Source of the DNA: Savitreella phatthalungensis
Lineage: Eukaryota
Reading direction: 5' to 3'
Length of the DNA stretch: 64,000 nt
Assembly (NCBI GenBank): GCA_051599415.1
Contig: AP039702.1
Location: forward strand, 310,001-374,000
Shown here: one piece after another, positions 24,542-49,512 of the stretch
How the letters are laid out: every line of letters starts with the position of its first letter
How positions within the stretch are numbered: the stretch's first letter is position 1
Notes under the pieces: model-generated
Databases searched by the model: none
What the model was told of the DNA's origin: nothing
Seen by the model: the letters and a program-made list of their open reading frames with translations, nothing else
Position numbers and translations under genes: made by a program

Positions 24542-27307
24542 ATGACTGCTGTTGTGACAGGGGCTTCAAGGCCTACTGGCCCTGCGGCTACGAGCTTGAC
24601 AGCGCTGGAAGATCTGCTCGAGCAGTCAAGACAGCTAGCCCAGGGTCTTCAAGAATACCTGTACCCAGACATCCCGAACATCGACCTCACCCTCAACGAG
24701 ATCATCTCATGTTGTGAAGGAATTGAGCATGGCACTAAGCAAGGAAGAGGTGCAATCGGACCCCAGCAAGAAGAGGACTTTACAAAAGCACATTACCTAT
24801 TGGCAAGCAGCGGCCTCAACCTTGAGCATACTGCACGAGAAATTGACGCAATTGAGCTACAAGAAGCTGAGGAGCCCTTGGCTTCCGCAGATTTCGATGT
24901 CGGTGCATTTGTCCGCCAAGCACGGGAGCGTACAGTCATTGAAATGCTCGAAGAGCGTCAGCGTCAGGCGGACATCGAGTTTGCAGCATTCATGGACAAA
25001 CATATGGAACAGAGCTGGGAGGACACAAAGCGCAAGCTTCTTGATGCCTACTACGCAGATCAGGCGAATGGTTCGAAAGATGTGAGTGCAGGCACGCAGT
25101 TGCAGCCATCCTTCACGCGTTCCCTTGCACAAAAGAGAGCGCCTCCACTACCCGGATTCGAGGACGTCGAGCTTGACAGCCAATTACAAGGCAACGGCAC
25201 AATCTCGTTCGGTCAGCGTGAGCAGACATTCGCTCAGGCCGTTGCTAGCATCAACGAACACCGGTTGATGCGTGAGCCCATGTCGGTTTGCTCATTGATG
25301 GCACAGCTCGTCGGATCGCTCGGAAACGATACGCGCACTCAGCAGCTGACGGATTCTTGGAACCTCCTCGGATTCATCACTGACGAGCGCCACACCGAAC
25401 AGGGCAAGGGCAGTACTGGCAAAACGTTACTGCCTCGTCGCTATCTGCGGGAGTACATGCTCGCCACCCCAGACAAGCCCGACGTTGCATTCAACACGCG
25501 CATTGTCGATGGTGCTCGCAGATACCTCGAAAATCAGTTCTTCGGACTCGTCGAGCGCGAGATCCTGCGCAACCCGCAGGAAGCACGAATGGGTGGTGTA
25601 CCGTCGATTGAGTCGAAGGTCAGGGCGTACGCCAATATCCGGTTCAACAAGAACGGTCAGTGGACTCAACAGAACCTCGAGATCGTCAACAATACGCCGA
25701 TTTGGGTTGTGCTGTTCTACCTGTTGCGGGCCGGCTTTGTAGAGGAAGCGGCTGCTTTTACCGTCAAGAATGAGACCTACCTTGCAAAGGTGGAGAAGAA
25801 CTTTGCATCGTACATGAAGGCCTACGTCAGCAACAACCGCAGACTGCCACGTCAGCTGTCGGAGCGCATGTACACAGAATACACACAACGAATCAGGCAA
25901 TCGTCGCAGCAGGGTGGTAGTGGCGACCCGTTCAAGCATGCACTTTACAAGATTCTTGGCCGCTTCGACCTGACTCGGCGCAATCTGCCAGATGTGCTGC
26001 CTGTCATTGAGGACTGGATGTGGTTGCAGCTGGCGCTCGTGCGAGAGTCGTCGACAGATGATCCTTCTTACGAAACATTCACCCTAGCAGACCTGCAGAC
26101 GACGCTTGTCAAGTACGGTCCCCGTCACTTCAACCCACGAGACACGAACCCTCTGCTCTACTTCCAGATGATGTTGATGACAGGTCAATTCGAGCGAGCT
26201 GTCCACTACCTCACCTCATTCTCGCTTGTCGACGCCGTGCATTTCGCAGCCGTCCTAAGCTACTTCGCCTTGCTACGGATCGCAGCACAGACCACAGCGG
26301 AGGCGACAGGCCGCTTGCTGCACGATGAGGACGAAGGCGGAGTGGTGGCCTTGGACTTTGCCGGACTGATGCGGCTTTACGCTGGAGCGATCGAGAGGCA
26401 AGCTTCGACGGCAGCTGTAGACTACTTGTGTCTGATCTGTCTGAACGACGATGTGCCCAAGCTGGCAGAGTCGCAGCGTAAGGCGGCACACGAGGCCGTC
26501 AGATCACTCGTCCTCGCCACGCGCGACTTTGCCACCCTGCTGGGCGACGTTCAGCCTCAAGGTACCCGTAAACCGGGCTACATCGAGCGCCGCATGAAGC
26601 TACTCGACCTCCAGGACGAGCGAGACTACCTTTACACCATCACTCATCGCGCCGCCAGGCTGGCGGATGAGGATGGACGCGTAGCAGACGCAATTCTGTT
26701 GTTCCATCTGGCAGAGGACTATGACACTGTGGTCGGGGTGGTGAACAAGTCATTGGGCGAGGCGCTCCTCGATCCTGCGTACCTGCCGTCCGAGGGCATC
26801 GGCGGGAACCTGTCGTTGTCGTCGGCAGAGGATCCTGCACTCCTGGCAAAGAACATGATCAAGCTATACAGTAGCAACGCCAGTATCTTTTCCCGCGTCT
26901 CAGCACGGAGCAAGCAGACGTGCGACCTTCTGCTCAAGGTCATCCAGGCACGTCAGCAGCGAGCATCCAACCAATTCGAAGCGTGTCTGACAACGATCGA
27001 TTCGCTTGAGTTGATCCCGATCAAGGAGGAGTATCCTGTCGGCGGAATCAAGCGTCTAGCTTCCACCTTCCAGCAGCTCGAGTCTTCACAGGTCGCCAGC
27101 ATCGTCCCATCCCTGCTGCTCCTCGCAAGCGACTGTCTGCGCGGGCTGTACACCAACCTCAAACACGCAAACTACCAAGACTCTTCCAGGCAGGCGAAAG
27201 CTCAAGGACTTAAGAAACGAGCTCGCAACTTGGCCACCTACGCCGGCATGATCAGGCTGCACATGGACGCATCCACCTACGGAGCGCTGATCGATATCAA
27301 CTGGTAG
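24542..27307 (+). CDS. NIC96: Nucleoporin Nic96/Nup93
   Basis: TKAHYLLASSG, ARRYLENQF, ARMGGVP, PIWVVLFYLLRAG, DPFKHALYKILGR, IEDWMWLQL, GQFERAV, DAVHFA. Confidence 0.95.
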   Translation: MTAVVTGASRPTGPAATSLTALEDLLEQSRQLAQGLQEYLYPDIPNIDLTLNEIISCCEGIEHGTKQGRGAIGPQQEEDFTKAHYLLASSGLNLEHTAREIDAIELQEAEEPLASADFDVGAFVRQARERTVIEMLEERQRQADIEFAAFMDKHMEQSWEDTKRKLLDAYYADQANGSKDVSAGTQLQPSFTRSLAQKRAPPLPGFEDVELDSQLQGNGTISFGQREQTFAQAVASINEHRLMREPMSVCSLMAQLVGSLGNDTRTQQLTDSWNLLGFITDERHTEQGKGSTGKTLLPRRYLREYMLATPDKPDVAFNTRIVDGARRYLENQFFGLVEREILRNPQEARMGGVPSIESKVRAYANIRFNKNGQWTQQNLEIVNNTPIWVVLFYLLRAGFVEEAAAFTVKNETYLAKVEKNFASYMKAYVSNNRRLPRQLSERMYTEYTQRIRQSSQQGGSGDPFKHALYKILGRFDLTRRNLPDVLPVIEDWMWLQLALVRESSTDDPSYETFTLADLQTTLVKYGPRHFNPRDTNPLLYFQMMLMTGQFERAVHYLTSFSLVDAVHFAAVLSYFALLRIAAQTTAEATGRLLHDEDEGGVVALDFAGLMRLYAGAIERQASTAAVDYLCLICLNDDVPKLAESQRKAAHEAVRSLVLATRDFATLLGDVQPQGTRKPGYIERRMKLLDLQDERDYLYTITHRAARLADEDGRVADAILLFHLAEDYDTVVGVVNKSLGEALLDPAYLPSEGIGGNLSLSSAEDPALLAKNMIKLYSSNASIFSRVSARSKQTCDLLLKVIQARQQRASNQFEACLTTIDSLELIPIKEEYPVGGIKRLASTFQQLESSQVASIVPSLLLLASDCLRGLYTNLKHANYQDSSRQAKAQGLKKRARNLATYAGMIRLHMDASTYGALIDINW

Positions 27308-27857
27308 ATGGAGGAAAGCTAGAGGACTAGACAACAGAGTGTGACGGAGGCTAGCATTAGAAGATAATTCCTTCCACACGTGTGCATCATGATCGGTGAT
27401 CCATAAATTGTGGGCGTGGCAGATGGAAGGCGTGATGATCAATCAAGAAATACAGGCCAAGTTGCCACCACTCTCATTGATGGACATGTGGTTGGGTTCA
27501 TCTAGGACGGATACATAAGGACACGCATATGCGCGTACATGTAGAAGATTCTACTGGATTAAATAAGACCTAGTTGAGCTTCTTCACTGAATTTTATATC
27601 TGGACACCATTGCAAAATCAATCGAGTGCATATGTATGTGTTGTATTGAAGGAGGAAATGCTTGATTGACACTGTACGTGAATCGATGGTGTATATACAC
27701 GTGCCAATTGGATGATGAGGATGATCGACGTCATTTTTCTATATTCGATCTTCCAATTGTGCTGTGCATATCTGAATCTTCTTCTCCCGTAAAAATTCCT
27801 TGGAAGTGATTTAAGTGGAGAAGTAAAAAAGAAGAAGAAGGGCATTTTACACAGAAA

Positions 27858-27946
27858 ACAGACACAGACACAGACACAGACACAGACACAGATGCAGACA
27901 CAGATGCAGACACAGATGCAGATACAGACACACATACAAATACACA
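27858..27946. repeat. (ACAGAC/GCAGAC)n hexanucleotide microsatellite
   Basis: acagacacagacacagac...gatgcagacacagatgcagac tandem array in the Nic96-PTP intergenic region. Confidence 0.9.
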
Positions 27947-28819
27947 CCTACGTGTACATCCACAGACTCAAACACAGAGAAACAGATTTAGGTAGTATAG
28001 ATTATTAGTCAAATCAGCCGGATCAGATACTAATGACAAGCAAAGACGTAATTGCGCCTAATCTCGCATGAAATCACACATACCTACAGCCAGAATCAGA
28101 CACCTTCACTCATTCACGTACATACACACAATCACCTTCATACTCATTCACGTACACACTATACACGTACGTCCTCTTCAGCAGGTCAACTCAAGACATC
28201 GCTCAGAAAGGCTTTCGCAGTAAAACCTCTGCTGTCGGATCTACCACCGACCCATCGCGCCGAGTCTGGCGAAAGATTTGAGCGCAGGCAATACAAATCT
28301 GCCCTGCCAACACTTGCACTCAATCAGCTGCTAGTCCTCACAAAAACGGCCGCGTTCTTCTCAAAAACTCGCGATATTACCACAAAGAGAGCTCGTCACA
28401 TCGCCAAGCGCTTCCACTAGCTTAATCGTCGCCGTGTGGAGGACTTGACGCTTTCGCTCCGTCAGCTTTGAGCTTGAATCCTGGCATCCCCGGCCACAGA
28501 ACTGACGCCGACTCCGCGTGACACACAAGGCTCGCGCGAGTCGGCACAAAACTACTTTGACCTCTCGATAGATAGATCGATCTCGAGAGGCATCTCCCAT
28601 CAGAACTTTGACTTCGGCAGCCATTCTAATCACAATGCTGCATACCACTATACACGAGCCGAGCCACCGAATCCAGCGGGATTCAGCTCGACAGCAGACA
28701 GTCTAGGCTCTCCTTCACACGAGAAAAAATCCGACTATGCTGTCGCTGCTGCTGACGAGGTCGCTGGTACAACCTCACCATCTCTCGGCAATCTTTCGTC
28801 GAATCACTCGACCCGAGGA

Positions 28820-31567
28820 ATGACCTCGTCCACTGCAGCCTGGCTCAATCAACAGTCTGCGGCCAATCGGCGCCCTCAACATCCTGGCAACCCGCAGATC
28901 GTAGAAGACCCTTTCGGCAGTGCCCAGTACTCGGCAGTCTCAGCGGCCAACAGCATCACGCACAGCCAATCATCCCCAAGCTCATCTGATCGTCATCACG
29001 ATGAGACACGATGTGAGCCCATCAGCTCACCTCAACTTGCAGCAGGCTTGAAAAGCATCACTGTAAACGACAAGGGATCATCCTCGCCCATACATATACC
29101 TCACGTTTCACGCTTCAATCAGAGTCGTTCCGAAGGACAAGGTTACAACGCGCGCACCAGTGCTCTACACGCTAGCCAACCGCTGCCTCCACACATGACT
29201 TTGCACGAGCTTTTGTCACGTAACCCGGAACTGATCGGCCGATCAGCGACTCCAAGCACGGCCAGTCTCAGGTCCGCCAGCTCTTCCGTGCCAGACACCG
29301 TCGTCGAGCAAATCTCAGCGAAGGATCTGCCTGCAACCCTGAATCAGGTAGACGGTCACGTCATCATTCTCGATCTGAGACCATTTGCCTCGTTTCAAAA
29401 GTCTCGAATGGAAGGCGCAATCAACGTGTGCATTCCAGCCACGCTTCTGAAACGCCCTGCATTCACAATTGCAAAAATCATAGACTCTCTCGCCACAGAT
29501 GAAGCTCGGACAGAGCTTAAGGGCTGGCACGACGCCTCGGCCATCGTGCTCTATGATAGCGATACGCACAAGGTCGGCGATCAGTCGGCTCTTGGACTCT
29601 CGGCCAAAAAGTTCTTCACCGACTCCTGGCATGGAAAGCTCTACACAGTACGAGGTGGATACGCTGCTGTCGCTCGGGAGGCTTCCGAACTCGTCGATAG
29701 TACACCTGTATCGGACTCTGTCCAGTATCGTCAATCAAGCGGACCAGGGCTGAAGCTCGGAACAAGTGCGCCACCTGTCCTTTCTGGTGGTATGACCGAG
29801 TTCTCATGTAGACTGCCTCCTAAGCAGGCTGCCATCAACCCGTTCTTCAACAACATTCGTCAGAACCAGGATCTGATCGGAGGTGTCGGTGAACCTCTAC
29901 CGCTGCACGTTCCGACCATGCCGAAGAGCTTACGGCGACGCCTGCCTCGGTGGCTTCGTCGTGTTGCCTTCTCGCGCGATGGACCAAGGCAGATCGCCGA
30001 GAAGTTCTTCCGGATCGAGAAGGAGGAACTGCACCGGATGCAGCGTGTTCTCAATGCTGGTCCTACACCGGGCTCGAAGCACAATCTCGATGATCGCCAC
30101 AGCATTGCTGCTGGTATTGAGCGCGGCGATAAGAATCGCTACAACAACATCTGGCCATTTGAAAACGCACGAGTTCGACTGCAAGACACATCGCAAATCA
30201 CCTCCGACTACGTCAATGCTTCCTTCCTCCACAACTCGGCGTCCGATCGCTACTACATAGCCACGCAGGGCCCACTGGCAGCGACCACGCGCGACTTCTG
30301 GCAAGTCGTGTGGGAGAATGACGTCCGAGTGGTTGTCATGCTGACCAAGGTCGTTGAAGATGGTCAAGCAAAGTGTCACACCTACTGGACTGAGGACAAC
30401 CTGTCAGGCCCATTCAACATCGAGCAGGTCGCAGAGCGCACAGTTCAGTCAACATACAGATCGGGAGAAGCAGTGCCTCTGATTGTGCGCAAGTTCGTGC
30501 TGTCCAGGAAAGATCGACAGCTAGAGCCGCCGCGCGAGGTGACGCACATTCAATTCCCAGACTGGCCGGATCTTCACGTCGTGGACCCAAGATCGATCCT
30601 GGCGCTCACGCAGGAATCGCAGCTTGCAAGCCTTGTGACTGACTCGCCCGGACCGAAGCGTCGCAAGTCCTTGGCTACAGCTGCAGTGGGCTCACATCAT
30701 CACGAAGGACACGCTACTCGCCCTACGCTGACGCACTGCTCCGCCGGATGCGGAAGGACGGGCGTCTTCTGTACGGTCGACACGGTCGTCGATCTGCTTC
30801 GTCGCCAGCTCGAGCGCCGTCCTGCAGAGCACGATCACATGGACGTGTCTGAGGTTGAGCCAATTCCAGGCCACGCACTGCCCTCGCGATCGGCCACAAA
30901 TTCACCATCAAAGGTCCCTCCGTTCTCCCTGGCCTTGCCGCCAGGCCTCCTCAATGGCATCAATAAACAGCGGAACAAGCGCCAATCCGCTCAACTCGAC
31001 TCGTCCGATGGGAGTGACGACTCTCCAGGCTCACCATGGGGTCGGCCTGAATTGAACCCGCTCAAGAACGCGTTTGCGCCGATCGATCCTTCGGCAGCCC
31101 GCTGGCGACGAGGTTTCCTCACGGGCTCTTCGAGTGCAGCGTCGACGCCATCACATGAGCCATCGAGTGCGGAAGTGAACAAGACCATGCGCTCTCGAGC
31201 GCAAACAATCGCGATACCAGCATCGTCCACGCAAGCCAGCTCTTCATCTGAAGCCACCGAGAGAGCAGCGGATCGTTCCACTCAGGGCAACGCAAAAGAC
31301 GAGATGGAAGGTCTAGATGATGTTGAGGACGAGGATGACTTCTCGGAGGCAGGACTATTTGGAGAGAATGACGACGTCGACTTGATCGAGCAAACCGTCA
31401 GATCCTTCAGGGACCAAAGAATCTCGATGGTTCAAACCCTCAGACAATTCGTCCTCTGCTACGACGCCGCTCTCCTCTACGCCACTGATCTCTGCAAGGA
31501 TCTCGTCGAGTTTGACGCCCAGCGGCGTGCGAAAGAAGCTGCCGATCCATCATCATCGTCATCCTAG
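28820..31567 (+). CDS. Rhodanese + classical protein-tyrosine phosphatase (Pyp1/Ptp2/3-type MAPK phosphatase); may start upstream at CTG 28481
   Basis: ILDLRP...GAINVCIPATLLKRP (rhodanese/KIM), ERGDKNRYNNIWPF, YVNAS, YIATQGPL, WPD, HCSAGCGRTG, QRISMVQTLRQF. Confidence 0.93.
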   Translation: MTSSTAAWLNQQSAANRRPQHPGNPQIVEDPFGSAQYSAVSAANSITHSQSSPSSSDRHHDETRCEPISSPQLAAGLKSITVNDKGSSSPIHIPHVSRFNQSRSEGQGYNARTSALHASQPLPPHMTLHELLSRNPELIGRSATPSTASLRSASSSVPDTVVEQISAKDLPATLNQVDGHVIILDLRPFASFQKSRMEGAINVCIPATLLKRPAFTIAKIIDSLATDEARTELKGWHDASAIVLYDSDTHKVGDQSALGLSAKKFFTDSWHGKLYTVRGGYAAVAREASELVDSTPVSDSVQYRQSSGPGLKLGTSAPPVLSGGMTEFSCRLPPKQAAINPFFNNIRQNQDLIGGVGEPLPLHVPTMPKSLRRRLPRWLRRVAFSRDGPRQIAEKFFRIEKEELHRMQRVLNAGPTPGSKHNLDDRHSIAAGIERGDKNRYNNIWPFENARVRLQDTSQITSDYVNASFLHNSASDRYYIATQGPLAATTRDFWQVVWENDVRVVVMLTKVVEDGQAKCHTYWTEDNLSGPFNIEQVAERTVQSTYRSGEAVPLIVRKFVLSRKDRQLEPPREVTHIQFPDWPDLHVVDPRSILALTQESQLASLVTDSPGPKRRKSLATAAVGSHHHEGHATRPTLTHCSAGCGRTGVFCTVDTVVDLLRRQLERRPAEHDHMDVSEVEPIPGHALPSRSATNSPSKVPPFSLALPPGLLNGINKQRNKRQSAQLDSSDGSDDSPGSPWGRPELNPLKNAFAPIDPSAARWRRGFLTGSSSAASTPSHEPSSAEVNKTMRSRAQTIAIPASSTQASSSSEATERAADRSTQGNAKDEMEGLDDVEDEDDFSEAGLFGENDDVDLIEQTVRSFRDQRISMVQTLRQFVLCYDAALLYATDLCKDLVEFDAQRRAKEAADPSSSSS

Positions 31568-31852
31568 GGCCAAACCCACACACACGCACACAACGACACA
31601 TTATCCTACATCAAACGAACGTACATACATTTATCAAACACACCAACGGTTACAGCGGGAGCATTTAACATCATTTTTTCCTTTTCACGTATCAATCACA
31701 TACACGAGAGCACAGCACAGCACAGCACAGGGACCATAAGGCAGCAATGAAATCAATGAAGTAAGTCTAGGAAGCACCTTGGTATTTGTCTGATGTGATG
31801 TGATAGCTAGTTATGGATGCTAGATACAGTATCTAGGGCTGCGACCTAACAA

Positions 31853-43036: not shown

Positions 43037-43893
43037 AGGAGCTGCAGGTACGTTATCCTTATGAGCTCCCTCGTCGTGAGATATTAGCTGGTCGGATTTG
43101 GGTTGGAGAACACGCTTGTTGGAGTCAACAGCAGGTTGTGCAGGTTCGGATAGGGATGCACTGCGCTTACGGCCACGTTTATTCCGAGCCAGACTGGCTG
43201 TCGAAACTTCAATCAAGGCCTCGCAACGATAATGTAAGGAAAGGAGTACCCTCGGCAAGCTTATTGACGAGCTTGCGTAGGACGTTGTACAATAGCCCGT
43301 GCTAGTTTCTGCCGGCGATATCGGCTACGCACGGGTACCCTTTGTTGACTCCGTTCGAACTTCCAGCACAAAATTTTGAGAATCGCGCTGAGTGATAGAT
43401 GTCTGTGCGGCTAAACAGCCTACGAAGTCCGTGCGTGACTTTCGTAGGGTGCTTTCAAGTGTCAGCTCTGTCTTTGTCTTTCTGTGATGAGGTATGACGA
43501 CGCGTGTGTTCGTTTGAGTGTCAGTGCAGTTGATTGCGCGTAAGTGTGAACACTGGATATGTGGTGGGTTGATTTGTTGCATCTGATCATTTCAATTTAG
43601 CATGAATGCAGTCAATTCCAGGTTACGCTACGTAGTCGAGTAAATGCACGACAGTGGAAATAGTCTGTGATCTTCATACGACCTCCTGTTCACATTGTAT
43701 CAGACCTGTGGGCTCAACTTTGTCAGGCAAGCTTAGTGATGCAGGAGAAACAATGAGCAGACCATTGAAAGGAGCTGGCAGCTCTGCTACGTATGCTCTG
43801 TACACATCGCTGGTCAATAAATGTGTCTGAGCAAAACTACCAGTCTGTCGGCTCGTGTCGAGTGATTGTCAATCTCGCCATTTTAATGCTGCC

Positions 43894-47577: not shown

Positions 47578-48411
47578 ACTTGCTTCTAATGGGAATCACA
47601 GGGAGACGAATCTCAGATTGAGAATAGTGAGTCAGTTTGGGAGAACTTGACGACAGACGTTCTCTGGCACACATCTCTTTCTTCGGTCGACCTTTGGCAG
47701 ATCCTTCGAGACACTCCTTTCATTTGCCTATCACGCACTTTTCTTTCCCAATATTAGAACACCGCATCTCCTGCCTCACCATCTTTACCTTTACCACACA
47801 ATGCAACGACCTACACAGACACACACACCAGGAAAAATTTGAGACTGTGGTAAGTCTCACAATCGATACATACACTACACCACCTTACGTCCTTGATTTC
47901 GCATGGTGAGTCATGATGTGATAAGACTCTGTTGTAGGTTCTGTGTGAAGGCGAGCCCCTACTGCTGATGCGTTGCGAGGATAGCCAAAAGTCATGGAGC
48001 ATAAGATACTAAGATTTGTGCGCTGCCTAGCATATATGCATGTGAACAGGTCTCTGATCAAGCGATGGCGTGCCCGTGTAAAATATCAGTTGCTTTCTGT
48101 CGAGATACAGAAAAACACGTGCTTACAGCCTCCTAGCACAGGGAAACTATCATGGAACCTGTGATACAGTATGTGGATCCCTTTGGGTTGATCCCCTGGA
48201 CCGGTGAGCAACCCTGACCACCACTCAGGTCTGATCCAGTCTCTGCGACGTCGTTCGCTAGGACGCGCACGCCGCACGCTCTGGTGCTCTGTCTACCCGT
48301 CAAGTAGATCGGACTGGAGGAATTTGTACGCCAGGCAGCCATCAACGCTCCAAACTTAGCTTGGCGGACAGTCGTCATTGTCGTCCACCGCTATCGCTTG
48401 GCTCGACCAGG

Positions 48412-49512
48412 ATGAACAGCATCAAGATCTTCGCCGGCAATAGCCACCCGGAGCTCGCTCAAAAGGTAGCAGACAAGTACGTTTGATCTGCACATGCAAG
48501 CGGCATCCGCCCGAAAGCATACTGACATCGTTGCGCAGGATTGGCATCGCTCTAGGCAAAGTGGTCGTGCTCAAATACTCGAACCAGGAGACTGCCATCA
48601 CCATTGGGGAATCTGTGCGTGACGAGGACGTCTTCATCATCCAGACCGGCTGCGCAAGCATCAACGATCACCTCATGGAGTTACTCATTATGATCAATGC
48701 TTGCAAGACGGCGTCAGCCCGGCGAGTAAGTATCCATTCTCCCTTTGACCTGATATAACCCCTGGTCAAGCAATTTGACTCTATAAGGACACGAAGGCTG
48801 ACACAGGCAGATTACCGCTGTAATTCCATCGTTCCCATATGCGCGACAGGACAAGAAGGACAAGTCGCGGGCCCCGATCACTGCGAAGCTCGTGGCAAAT
48901 ATGCTGCAGACAGCCGGCTGCAACCACATCATCACAATGGACCTGCATGCTTCACAGATTCAGGGCTTCTTCAACATACCAGTCGACAACCTATTTGCCG
49001 AGCCGTCGATGCTCAAGTACATCCGGGAAAATCTGGATTACAAAAATGCAATCATTGTGTCGCCCGACGCAGGTGGCGCCAAACGCGCCACAGCCATCGC
49101 TGACAGGCTTGATCTCGACTTTGCTCTGATTCACAAGGAGCGAAAGAAGGCTAACGAGGTAAGTCGCATGGTATTGGTGGGAGACGTGCGTGGGAAGGTC
49201 TGTGTGCTCGTCGACGATATGGCAGATACTTGCGGAACGCTTTGTCTGGCTGCGAAGACGCTCAAGGACAACGGCGCTGCATCGGTCTATGCGATCGTCA
49301 CCCACGGCATCCTCTCGGGCAAAGCTTGCGACTACATCAACGCAAGCACGTTGGAAAAAGTCGTCGTCACAAACACAATCCCTCACGCAGATAAGCGCGC
49401 ACGATGCGACAAGATCGATACGATCGACATCTCTCCCGTTCTTGGCGAGTGTATTCGCAGAATCCACCACGGTGAGTCAGTCTCTGTGCTCTTCAGCAAC
49501 ATGCCGTCATAG
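48412..49512 (+). CDS. Ribose-phosphate pyrophosphokinase (Prs2/Prs4-type); introns 48477-48538 and 48726-48810
   Basis: [31 protein letters not shown] and GTAAGT..GCTGAC..CAG introns restore ESVRDEDV...[36 protein letters not shown]. Confidence 0.95.

Follow-up and report, generated by a model that had tools for sequence, protein, structure and literature searches.

The phosphatase locus and its frame upstream of the annotated AUG

We analyzed a stretch of 64,000 nucleotides from Savitreella phatthalungensis (contig AP039702.1, positions 310,001 to 374,000, assembly GCA_051599415.1), hereafter called the window, which harbors a tyrosine phosphatase gene whose reading frame continues well upstream of its annotated start codon. 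Including the part without AUG, the open reading frame (ORF) covers 28478–31567 and comprises 1029 codons; it lies on the + strand, as do the other parts of the locus described below. Pfam searches assigned a Rhodanese domain to residues 292–399 of the frame (26.7 bits; cut-off 22.2) and a Y_phosphatase domain to residues 551–777 (E = 4.1e-54). An architecture with the rhodanese domain N-terminal to the protein tyrosine phosphatase (PTP) domain is thus present, and homologues carry the same pair (PF00581 and PF00102). Furthermore, the active site HCSAGCGRTG, representing the HC(X5)R(S/T) signature, is invariant across an alignment of 11 homologous sequences. We take this layout to be that of the mitogen-activated protein kinase (MAPK) phosphatases Ptp2/Ptp3 from S. 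cerevisiae and Pyp1/Pyp2 from S. pombe, which dephosphorylate the activation-loop tyrosine of MAP kinases. Judged by its domains, the gene product is a fungal rhodanese-plus-PTP tyrosine phosphatase with a putative role in MAPK signaling. An AlphaFold2 model of the 1029-residue frame, based on 116 aligned sequences, reached a mean predicted local distance difference test (pLDDT) score of 65.1, with values > 90 for both domains. A sequence search of the PDB returned generic animal PTP domains only and no solved fungal protein of the Ptp2/Ptp3 type.

The frame is bounded upstream by an in-frame TGA (28475–28477). ATC (28478) forms codon 1 and CTG (28481) codon 2, the latter with an A at position −3 (28478) and a G at position +4 (28484), while the earliest in-frame ATG is found at 28820 and corresponds to codon 115 (M115). 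The public gene model begins at this methionine: the annotated coding sequence (28820–31567), to which protein match, Pfam domains, and fold apply, encodes 915 amino acids with rhodanese and classical PTP domains, and the database protein for the gene (P0002), which is 100% identical, has the same start and length. The 114 codons in between (28478–28819) form an extension of the phosphatase frame that lacks AUG. Two out-of-frame AUGs precede ATG 28820, both with an A at position −3. The first opens a 23-codon ORF (28635–28706, terminated by TAG 28704–28706), and the second a 28-codon ORF (28737–28823), the TGA of which (28821–28823) overlaps ATG 28820 in an AUGA arrangement. Both the 114 AUG-less codons and the two out-of-frame AUGs had been pointed out in a preliminary description of the locus; all coordinates agreed with the sequence, and the observation itself is confirmed.

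The upstream region is also unusual in its spacing of ATGs. From ATG 28068 to ATG 28635, a gap of 567 nt separates two consecutive ATGs, which is the longest of 1072 such gaps in the window (mean 59.5). The intervening stretch without ATG in any frame (28071–28634) presumably corresponds to the 5′ leader and the beginning of the extension. By composition, 6.2 ATGs would be expected, and none occurred in 0.125% of 20000 shuffles (P = 0.00125). Such a depletion would be expected of a long leader in which selection disfavors upstream AUGs, and it is compatible with either start model, i.e., initiation at a near-cognate codon or at M115. Both ATGs that are present after the gap (28635 and 28737) fall downstream of the proposed near-cognate start.

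A family motif and coding-like codon usage in the extension

The extension contains a motif that is conserved within the phosphatase family, NYFDLSID, encoded by positions 28550–28573 (residues 25–32 of the frame). Residues 20–32 (RESAQNYFDLSID) are aligned to the pattern of the family, R-x-(S/P)-S-P-[NS]-Y-F-[GSD]-[LIF]-x-[VI]-[DE], and in the 11-sequence alignment NYFDLSID pairs with the N-terminal motifs of homologues, e.g., MSEGNYFSLSED, MSERDYFQMSIE, and SPNYFGLAVD. In the alignment of 116 sequences, YF or FF occupies query columns 26–27 in 74 of the 115 full-length homologues, the adjoining columns favor N/S, G/S/D, L/I/F, V/I, and D/E, and R20, located five residues ahead of the motif N, is common to 22 of the 115. 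The NYF motif, which the preliminary description had associated with the N-termini of fungal Ptp2/3, is therefore real and widespread in the family.

Motif-bearing homologues come from chytrids, ascomycetes, and basidiomycetes. Across the homologues P0003–P0170, the N-terminal motif reads roughly (S/T)P-[NS]-Y-F-[GSD]-[LIF]-x-[VI]-[DE] throughout the fungal rhodanese-PTP phosphatases. Proteins of the closest clade (P0003, P0005, P0006, and P0007) begin with M-x(2-4)-[ND]YF. A DYF form was seen in matches named Rhodotorula and Geranomyces (chytrid), and a subgroup of homologues starts straight with MDFF, MSDFF, or MSDDFF. The motif is missing from the predicted proteins P0004 and P0024 and is degenerate in P0025.

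A stricter version of the pattern, [NSD]YF[GDSN][LIF]x[IVL][DE], was written after the sequences had been seen, so that its figures are illustrative, while the alignment was made blind to it. NYFDLSID fits eight of the eight positions. The strict pattern is found in 23 of 162 M-starting homologues, occurs a single time (at 28550) among the 127,996 six-frame residues of the 64-kb window, and arose in 3 cases when the residues of the extension were shuffled 200,000 times. The motif as a criterion for the family was defined in this analysis and not taken from the literature, and the phosphatase in the window carries it only if the extension is translated. A full-text literature search for SPNYF, the commonest form of the motif, yielded no relevant description. 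When the extension was compared by BLASTP with P0007, the nearest homologue, nothing significant emerged (E = 9.6); an alignment made by eye, which paired the 23 residues before NYF with the first 21 residues of P0007, found no support in BLASTP and was discarded.

Codon usage provided a second line of evidence. For scoring, a codon table was built on 17 long ORFs within the window, and with it the extension obtained +22.1 bits in frame, as compared to −27.3 and −47.9 bits for the other two frames, and genuine coding segments of equal length reached 26.6 ± 10.3 bits. When the extension was divided into sub-windows of 19 codons, all six were positive in frame 0, and none of 1500 stop-free shuffles attained the score of the extension (mean −11.8, standard deviation 7.8). 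An open frame of 114 codons by itself arose by chance in 1.4% of cases when the stretch was shuffled, and in 0.9% when neighboring intergenic sequence was used instead. Among the 26 ORFs of at least 300 amino acids in the window, the extension is the longest open stretch ahead of an ATG. The cullin gene (Pfam Cullin at residues 118–770 of its ORF) served as a natural negative control: its 96 open pre-ATG codons (43037–43324, − strand) appear non-coding by their score of −0.076 bits/codon, as compared to +0.194 bits/codon for the extension. The earlier proposal that the extension represents coding sequence is thus backed by motif homology and codon usage. On these grounds, together with the length of the open stretch and the depletion of ATGs, its coding nature is well supported, and we infer that it is translated at present.

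Candidate start codons and competing explanations

As there is no in-frame AUG between the TGA and the motif, a motif-bearing form would have to start at a near-cognate codon within 28478–28507. Four in-frame near-cognates are located upstream of R20, and they are arranged as two tandems: AUC-CUG (28478–28483), formed by ATC 28478 and CTG 28481, and CUG-ACG (28502–28507), formed by CTG 28502 and ACG 28505. CUG 28481, which stands in the context aatcCUGg with an A at −3, a C at −1, and a G at +4, is the best candidate. The good context that had been claimed for this codon fits the ATG starts of the neighborhood: of the window's presumed ATG starts, 23 in number, a purine occupies position −3 in 17 and a C or G position −1 in 19, and two of them read atcATG, similar to aatcCTGgca at 28481. 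CTG 28502 (gaaCTGa) is acceptable as a start, which makes the second tandem, placed upstream of the conservation from R20 onward, an alternative. On balance, the sequence features lead us to favor, by some distance short of certainty, a full-length phosphatase whose start is a near-cognate codon, with CUG 28481 as the most probable one. The preliminary idea of a near-cognate CUG start is thus supported in part, namely for the AUG-less, coding-like extension, with CUG 28481 as a candidate among the four in-frame near-cognates.

CTG 28481 is one base off an ATG, and its context aatcCTGgca is like that of local ATG starts. A real in-frame ATG upstream of the motif, e.g., at 28481, might thus be concealed by a sequence error or be absent from this strain variant, which would turn the locus into an ordinary gene with a mis-set annotation. 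All informative relatives do have an ATG (see below), and the protein is represented by one assembly only (1 member sequence, 1 contig), both of which would suit such a scenario. However, finished assemblies seldom contain substitution errors, and there is no homopolymer or repeat around 28481. We therefore consider an error or variant quite improbable as the reason for the missing AUG.

An AUG could also be supplied by splicing, i.e., by a 5′ exon joined to the extension. The preliminary description had named an acceptor at CAG 28499 for this purpose, and we looked for a matching exon. Three frame-compatible AGs exist between the TGA and the motif, of which CAG 28497–28499 is the only YAG; it is preceded by a pyrimidine-rich run and needs a donor at which the upstream exon ends with a single base of a split codon. 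Short introns do exist elsewhere in the window (candidates at ~48170–48810), and these have the donors GTAAGT, GTACGT, and GTATGT as well as CTGAC branch sites. Upstream of the extension, however, no ATG is found at 28069–28634, and the phase-compatible GTs after the 20 ATGs at 27308–28068 read GTGATC, GTTCAT, GTTGTA, GTATTG, GTGCAT, GTAGTA, GTATAG, and GTCCTC. No phase-compatible donor of the GTRNGT type, and none with a G at +5, lies behind any of these ATGs, with the search confined to single GT-AG introns and to ATGs from 27308 onward. A loose intron pattern had no match on the + strand at 27506–31760. Moreover, the sole YTRAY branch candidate, TTGAC at 28446–28450, is 46 nt away from CAG 28497–28499, and another CAG (28465–28467), the use of which would put the TGA in frame, intervenes between the two. 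A spliced AUG exon thus appears very improbable, and near-cognate initiation within the extension remains our preferred explanation.

For comparison with relatives, 78 metagenomic loci were collected, 67 of which were examined; the other 11 were dropped, as the match to the query begins past residue 306, so that the contig is without the upstream part. The motif was present in the frame of the match at 39 loci, and at 35 of those the upstream stop is inside the contig. An in-frame ATG between stop and motif was identified at all 35 informative loci, several of which are near-duplicates, at distances of 8 to 94 codons ahead of the motif. The motif is consequently translated sequence in the family. 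A CTG start conserved among relatives, as looked for on the basis of the preliminary description, does not exist in this set, since 35 of 35 loci use an in-frame ATG. This makes the locus in the window an exception, and its non-AUG state would be specific to the lineage. The databases that were searched yielded no close relative of the gene: among non-self matches, the best is 49–52% identical, in the domains only, and the best metagenomic locus 45%. One metagenomic locus (L021:1-400) was considered as a second AUG-less case, with 113 open codons before SPNYFGL up to the end of the contig, and was not counted. It departs from its relatives L023–L025 ~20 codons before the motif and runs off the contig; the point of divergence is probably an intron.

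Several observations weigh against near-cognate initiation or limit the evidence for it. First, since the informative relatives all start with AUG, the comparison lends no support to the CUG as such. Second, in the codon test, 2 of 118 natural spurious ORFs (90–250 codons, inside other genes) reach the 0.194 bits/codon of the extension, and a neighboring non-coding open frame (28052–28417) attains 0.123 bits/codon, which means that part of the extension's score comes from the C/A-rich local composition. Measured against natural controls, the codon test lends support without being overwhelming. Third, residues 33–114 have no detectable homology, conservation being restricted to the motif and a small number of residues beside it, and residues 1–270 have pLDDT values < 50 in the AlphaFold2 model, in which no structural role of the motif is visible and no docking of the NYF motif on the rhodanese or PTP domain was found. 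Fourth, four near-cognates in 24 codons are about what chance would provide. Finally, a hairpin predicted at 28507–28545, in the part of the extension formed by its first 23 codons, was rejected as a start-site enhancer. It consists of a stem of 8 + 6 bp with one bulge, formed by the arms GCCGACUC/GAGUCGGC plus CGCG pairs, and a 101-nt fold around it has a minimum free energy of −31.6 kcal/mol (z = −2.9; 2 of 200 shuffles fold equally well). A hairpin ~14 nt downstream is optimal for aiding start recognition; this one begins 23 nt past CUG 28481 and 2 nt past CUG 28502.

According to a further explanation, the extension is a relic. An ancestral AUG would have been lost recently, AUG 28820 would now be the start, and the extension would be a leader that has not yet acquired stops, with the out-of-frame AUGs acting as repressive upstream ORFs and re-initiation occurring at the AUGA. 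A recent loss of the AUG with an undecayed remnant would look identical to what we observe. The start of the public gene model at M115 agrees with this, as does the AUG before the motif in the informative relatives, which argues that a non-AUG start is not ancestral. The lack of homology in residues 33–114 points in the same direction, the absence or degeneration of the motif in P0004, P0024, and P0025 suggests that it may be dispensable, and the cullin gene demonstrates that an open stretch of 96 codons ahead of an ATG arises by chance in the same window. On the other hand, coding-like codon usage in all six sub-windows and a motif intact at 8 of 8 pattern positions speak against it, and the two out-of-frame AUGs in strong context would leave M115 poorly accessible. 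Overall, we regard a relic as unlikely, although it is the least unlikely of the alternatives to a near-cognate start.

Farther upstream, the phosphatase reading frame has 122 more stop-free codons (28052–28417), again without ATG, which are parted from the extension only by TAG 28418–28420 and TGA 28475–28477. Their openness probably results from the composition of the leader, which is C/A-rich.

Proposed initiation and relation to known fungal systems

If a near-cognate codon is used, the true coding region would begin ~114 codons upstream of the annotated AUG, and the added part would be a disordered, Ser/Thr/Pro-rich segment bearing NYFDLSID. In this lineage, non-AUG initiation would have taken the place of the AUG that precedes the motif in relatives. 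In the proposed mechanism, the 43S complex would scan the AUG-free leader, and a minority of complexes would initiate at CUG 28481 or 28502 to produce the full-length, motif-bearing phosphatase. The remaining complexes would meet AUG 28635 and then AUG 28737, each preceded by an A at −3, where they would translate the short ORFs that are out of frame, while M115 would be reached only via leaky scanning or re-initiation at the AUGA, giving rise to a form without the motif. The identity of the starting codon and the ratio of long to short form are points that we infer from this arrangement. It is a rather doubtful further step to assume that the swap from AUG to CUG made the motif-bearing enzyme available by near-cognate initiation only, with out-of-frame AUGs capturing the rest and the AUGA letting a few ribosomes re-initiate at M115, so that level and form ratio would follow start-codon stringency (eIF1/eIF5, stress). 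That MAPK feedback is tied to start-codon stringency, as the preliminary description suggested, is speculation.

Should a near-cognate codon indeed be used, the public phosphatase model would be 114 residues short and would lack the one N-terminal motif common to most fungal relatives. The locus would represent a natural swap from AUG to a near-cognate codon in a signaling enzyme and thereby a simple system for the role of the NYF motif, as well as for studying in what way the level of a phosphatase of the MAPK pathway depends on start-codon stringency. If level and form ratio did follow this stringency, the locus would also constitute a translational input to the down-regulation of MAPK, which would be missing in relatives with AUG. 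The family-wide NYF motif may merit study by itself.

Near-cognate N-terminal extensions are already established in fungi; distinctive here is the lineage-specific loss of AUG before a family-wide motif. According to the cited account, cpc-1 from Neurospora crassa and its homologues acquire N-terminal extensions through near-cognate starts (PMC5487733). The phosphatase gene resembles cpc-1 as described there in having a long, AUG-less, in-frame extension of a regulatory protein, deduced from conservation of the frame, and AUG-started upstream ORFs in the same leader (PMC5487733). For cpc-1, by the same account, the extension and some of the near-cognates are conserved in ~100 homologues and initiation was demonstrated in vitro (PMC5487733), whereas in the phosphatase gene, which is known from sequence, conservation is limited to a short motif and the relatives rely on AUG (35 of 35).

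A second case is 6-phosphogluconate dehydrogenase (PGD) from Ustilago maydis, for which the cited report describes a peroxisomal isoform with a cryptic peroxisomal targeting signal of type 2 (PTS2) that starts at a tandem AGG-AUU (PMC7214817). A short conserved motif upstream of the annotated AUG, accessed via tandem near-cognates, is a feature that both genes would share (PMC7214817). In PGD, the motif serves organelle targeting and dual localization, as stated in that report (PMC7214817), while the motif in the window is a family motif of signaling phosphatases that is normally located behind an AUG. In Cryptococcus, near-cognate starts are described for two aminoacyl-tRNA synthetases, ArgRS (AUU) and LeuRS (ACG-AUU), and swaps between weak AUGs and near-cognates are said to have happened several times in fungi (PMC7049704). 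Strong near-cognate context, adjacent near-cognates, and lineage-specific replacement of AUG link these cases, as outlined in the source, to the phosphatase gene (PMC7049704). Unlike the latter, the Cryptococcus cases are backed by ribosome profiling and serve mitochondrial targeting, according to the same source (PMC7049704). Our literature search for a non-AUG-started N-terminal extension of a fungal tyrosine phosphatase found none.

With respect to the protein, orthologues of Ptp2/Ptp3-type phosphatases have been named BcPtpA and BcPtpB in the cited work (PMC3621866). Like Ptp2/Ptp3 and Pyp1/Pyp2, the phosphatase in the window has its rhodanese-like domain ahead of a classical PTP domain that carries HC(X5)R, and its N-terminus is long and disordered. 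It differs from them by an insert of ~180 residues in the PTP domain (~786–965; window positions ~30833–31372), which is disordered (pLDDT < 50), Ser-rich, and acidic. This insert is located between the PTP core and the last helices, is missing in the closest homologues, and is short in others. The predicted proteins P0003, P0005, P0006, P0007, and P0024 stop at or just after SMVQT, while the gene in the window runs on with LRQFVLCY. The genes of these relatives probably have an intron after SMVQT that was left unjoined by the gene caller, whereas the gene in the window has none at this position.

The window as a whole is gene-dense, with long uninterrupted ORFs and a few short introns elsewhere. 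The upstream neighbor of the phosphatase gene is Nic96 on the same strand, with its stop at 27307, and the downstream neighbor is peroxin-3 on the opposite strand. An Rfam scan of 27000–29200 gave no match at E-values of up to 1. Between Nic96 and the phosphatase gene, an (ACACAG)n microsatellite was observed (27849–27944; ~14 copies, 80% matches), and variant units of this repeat hold three ATGs (27892, 27904, and 27916).

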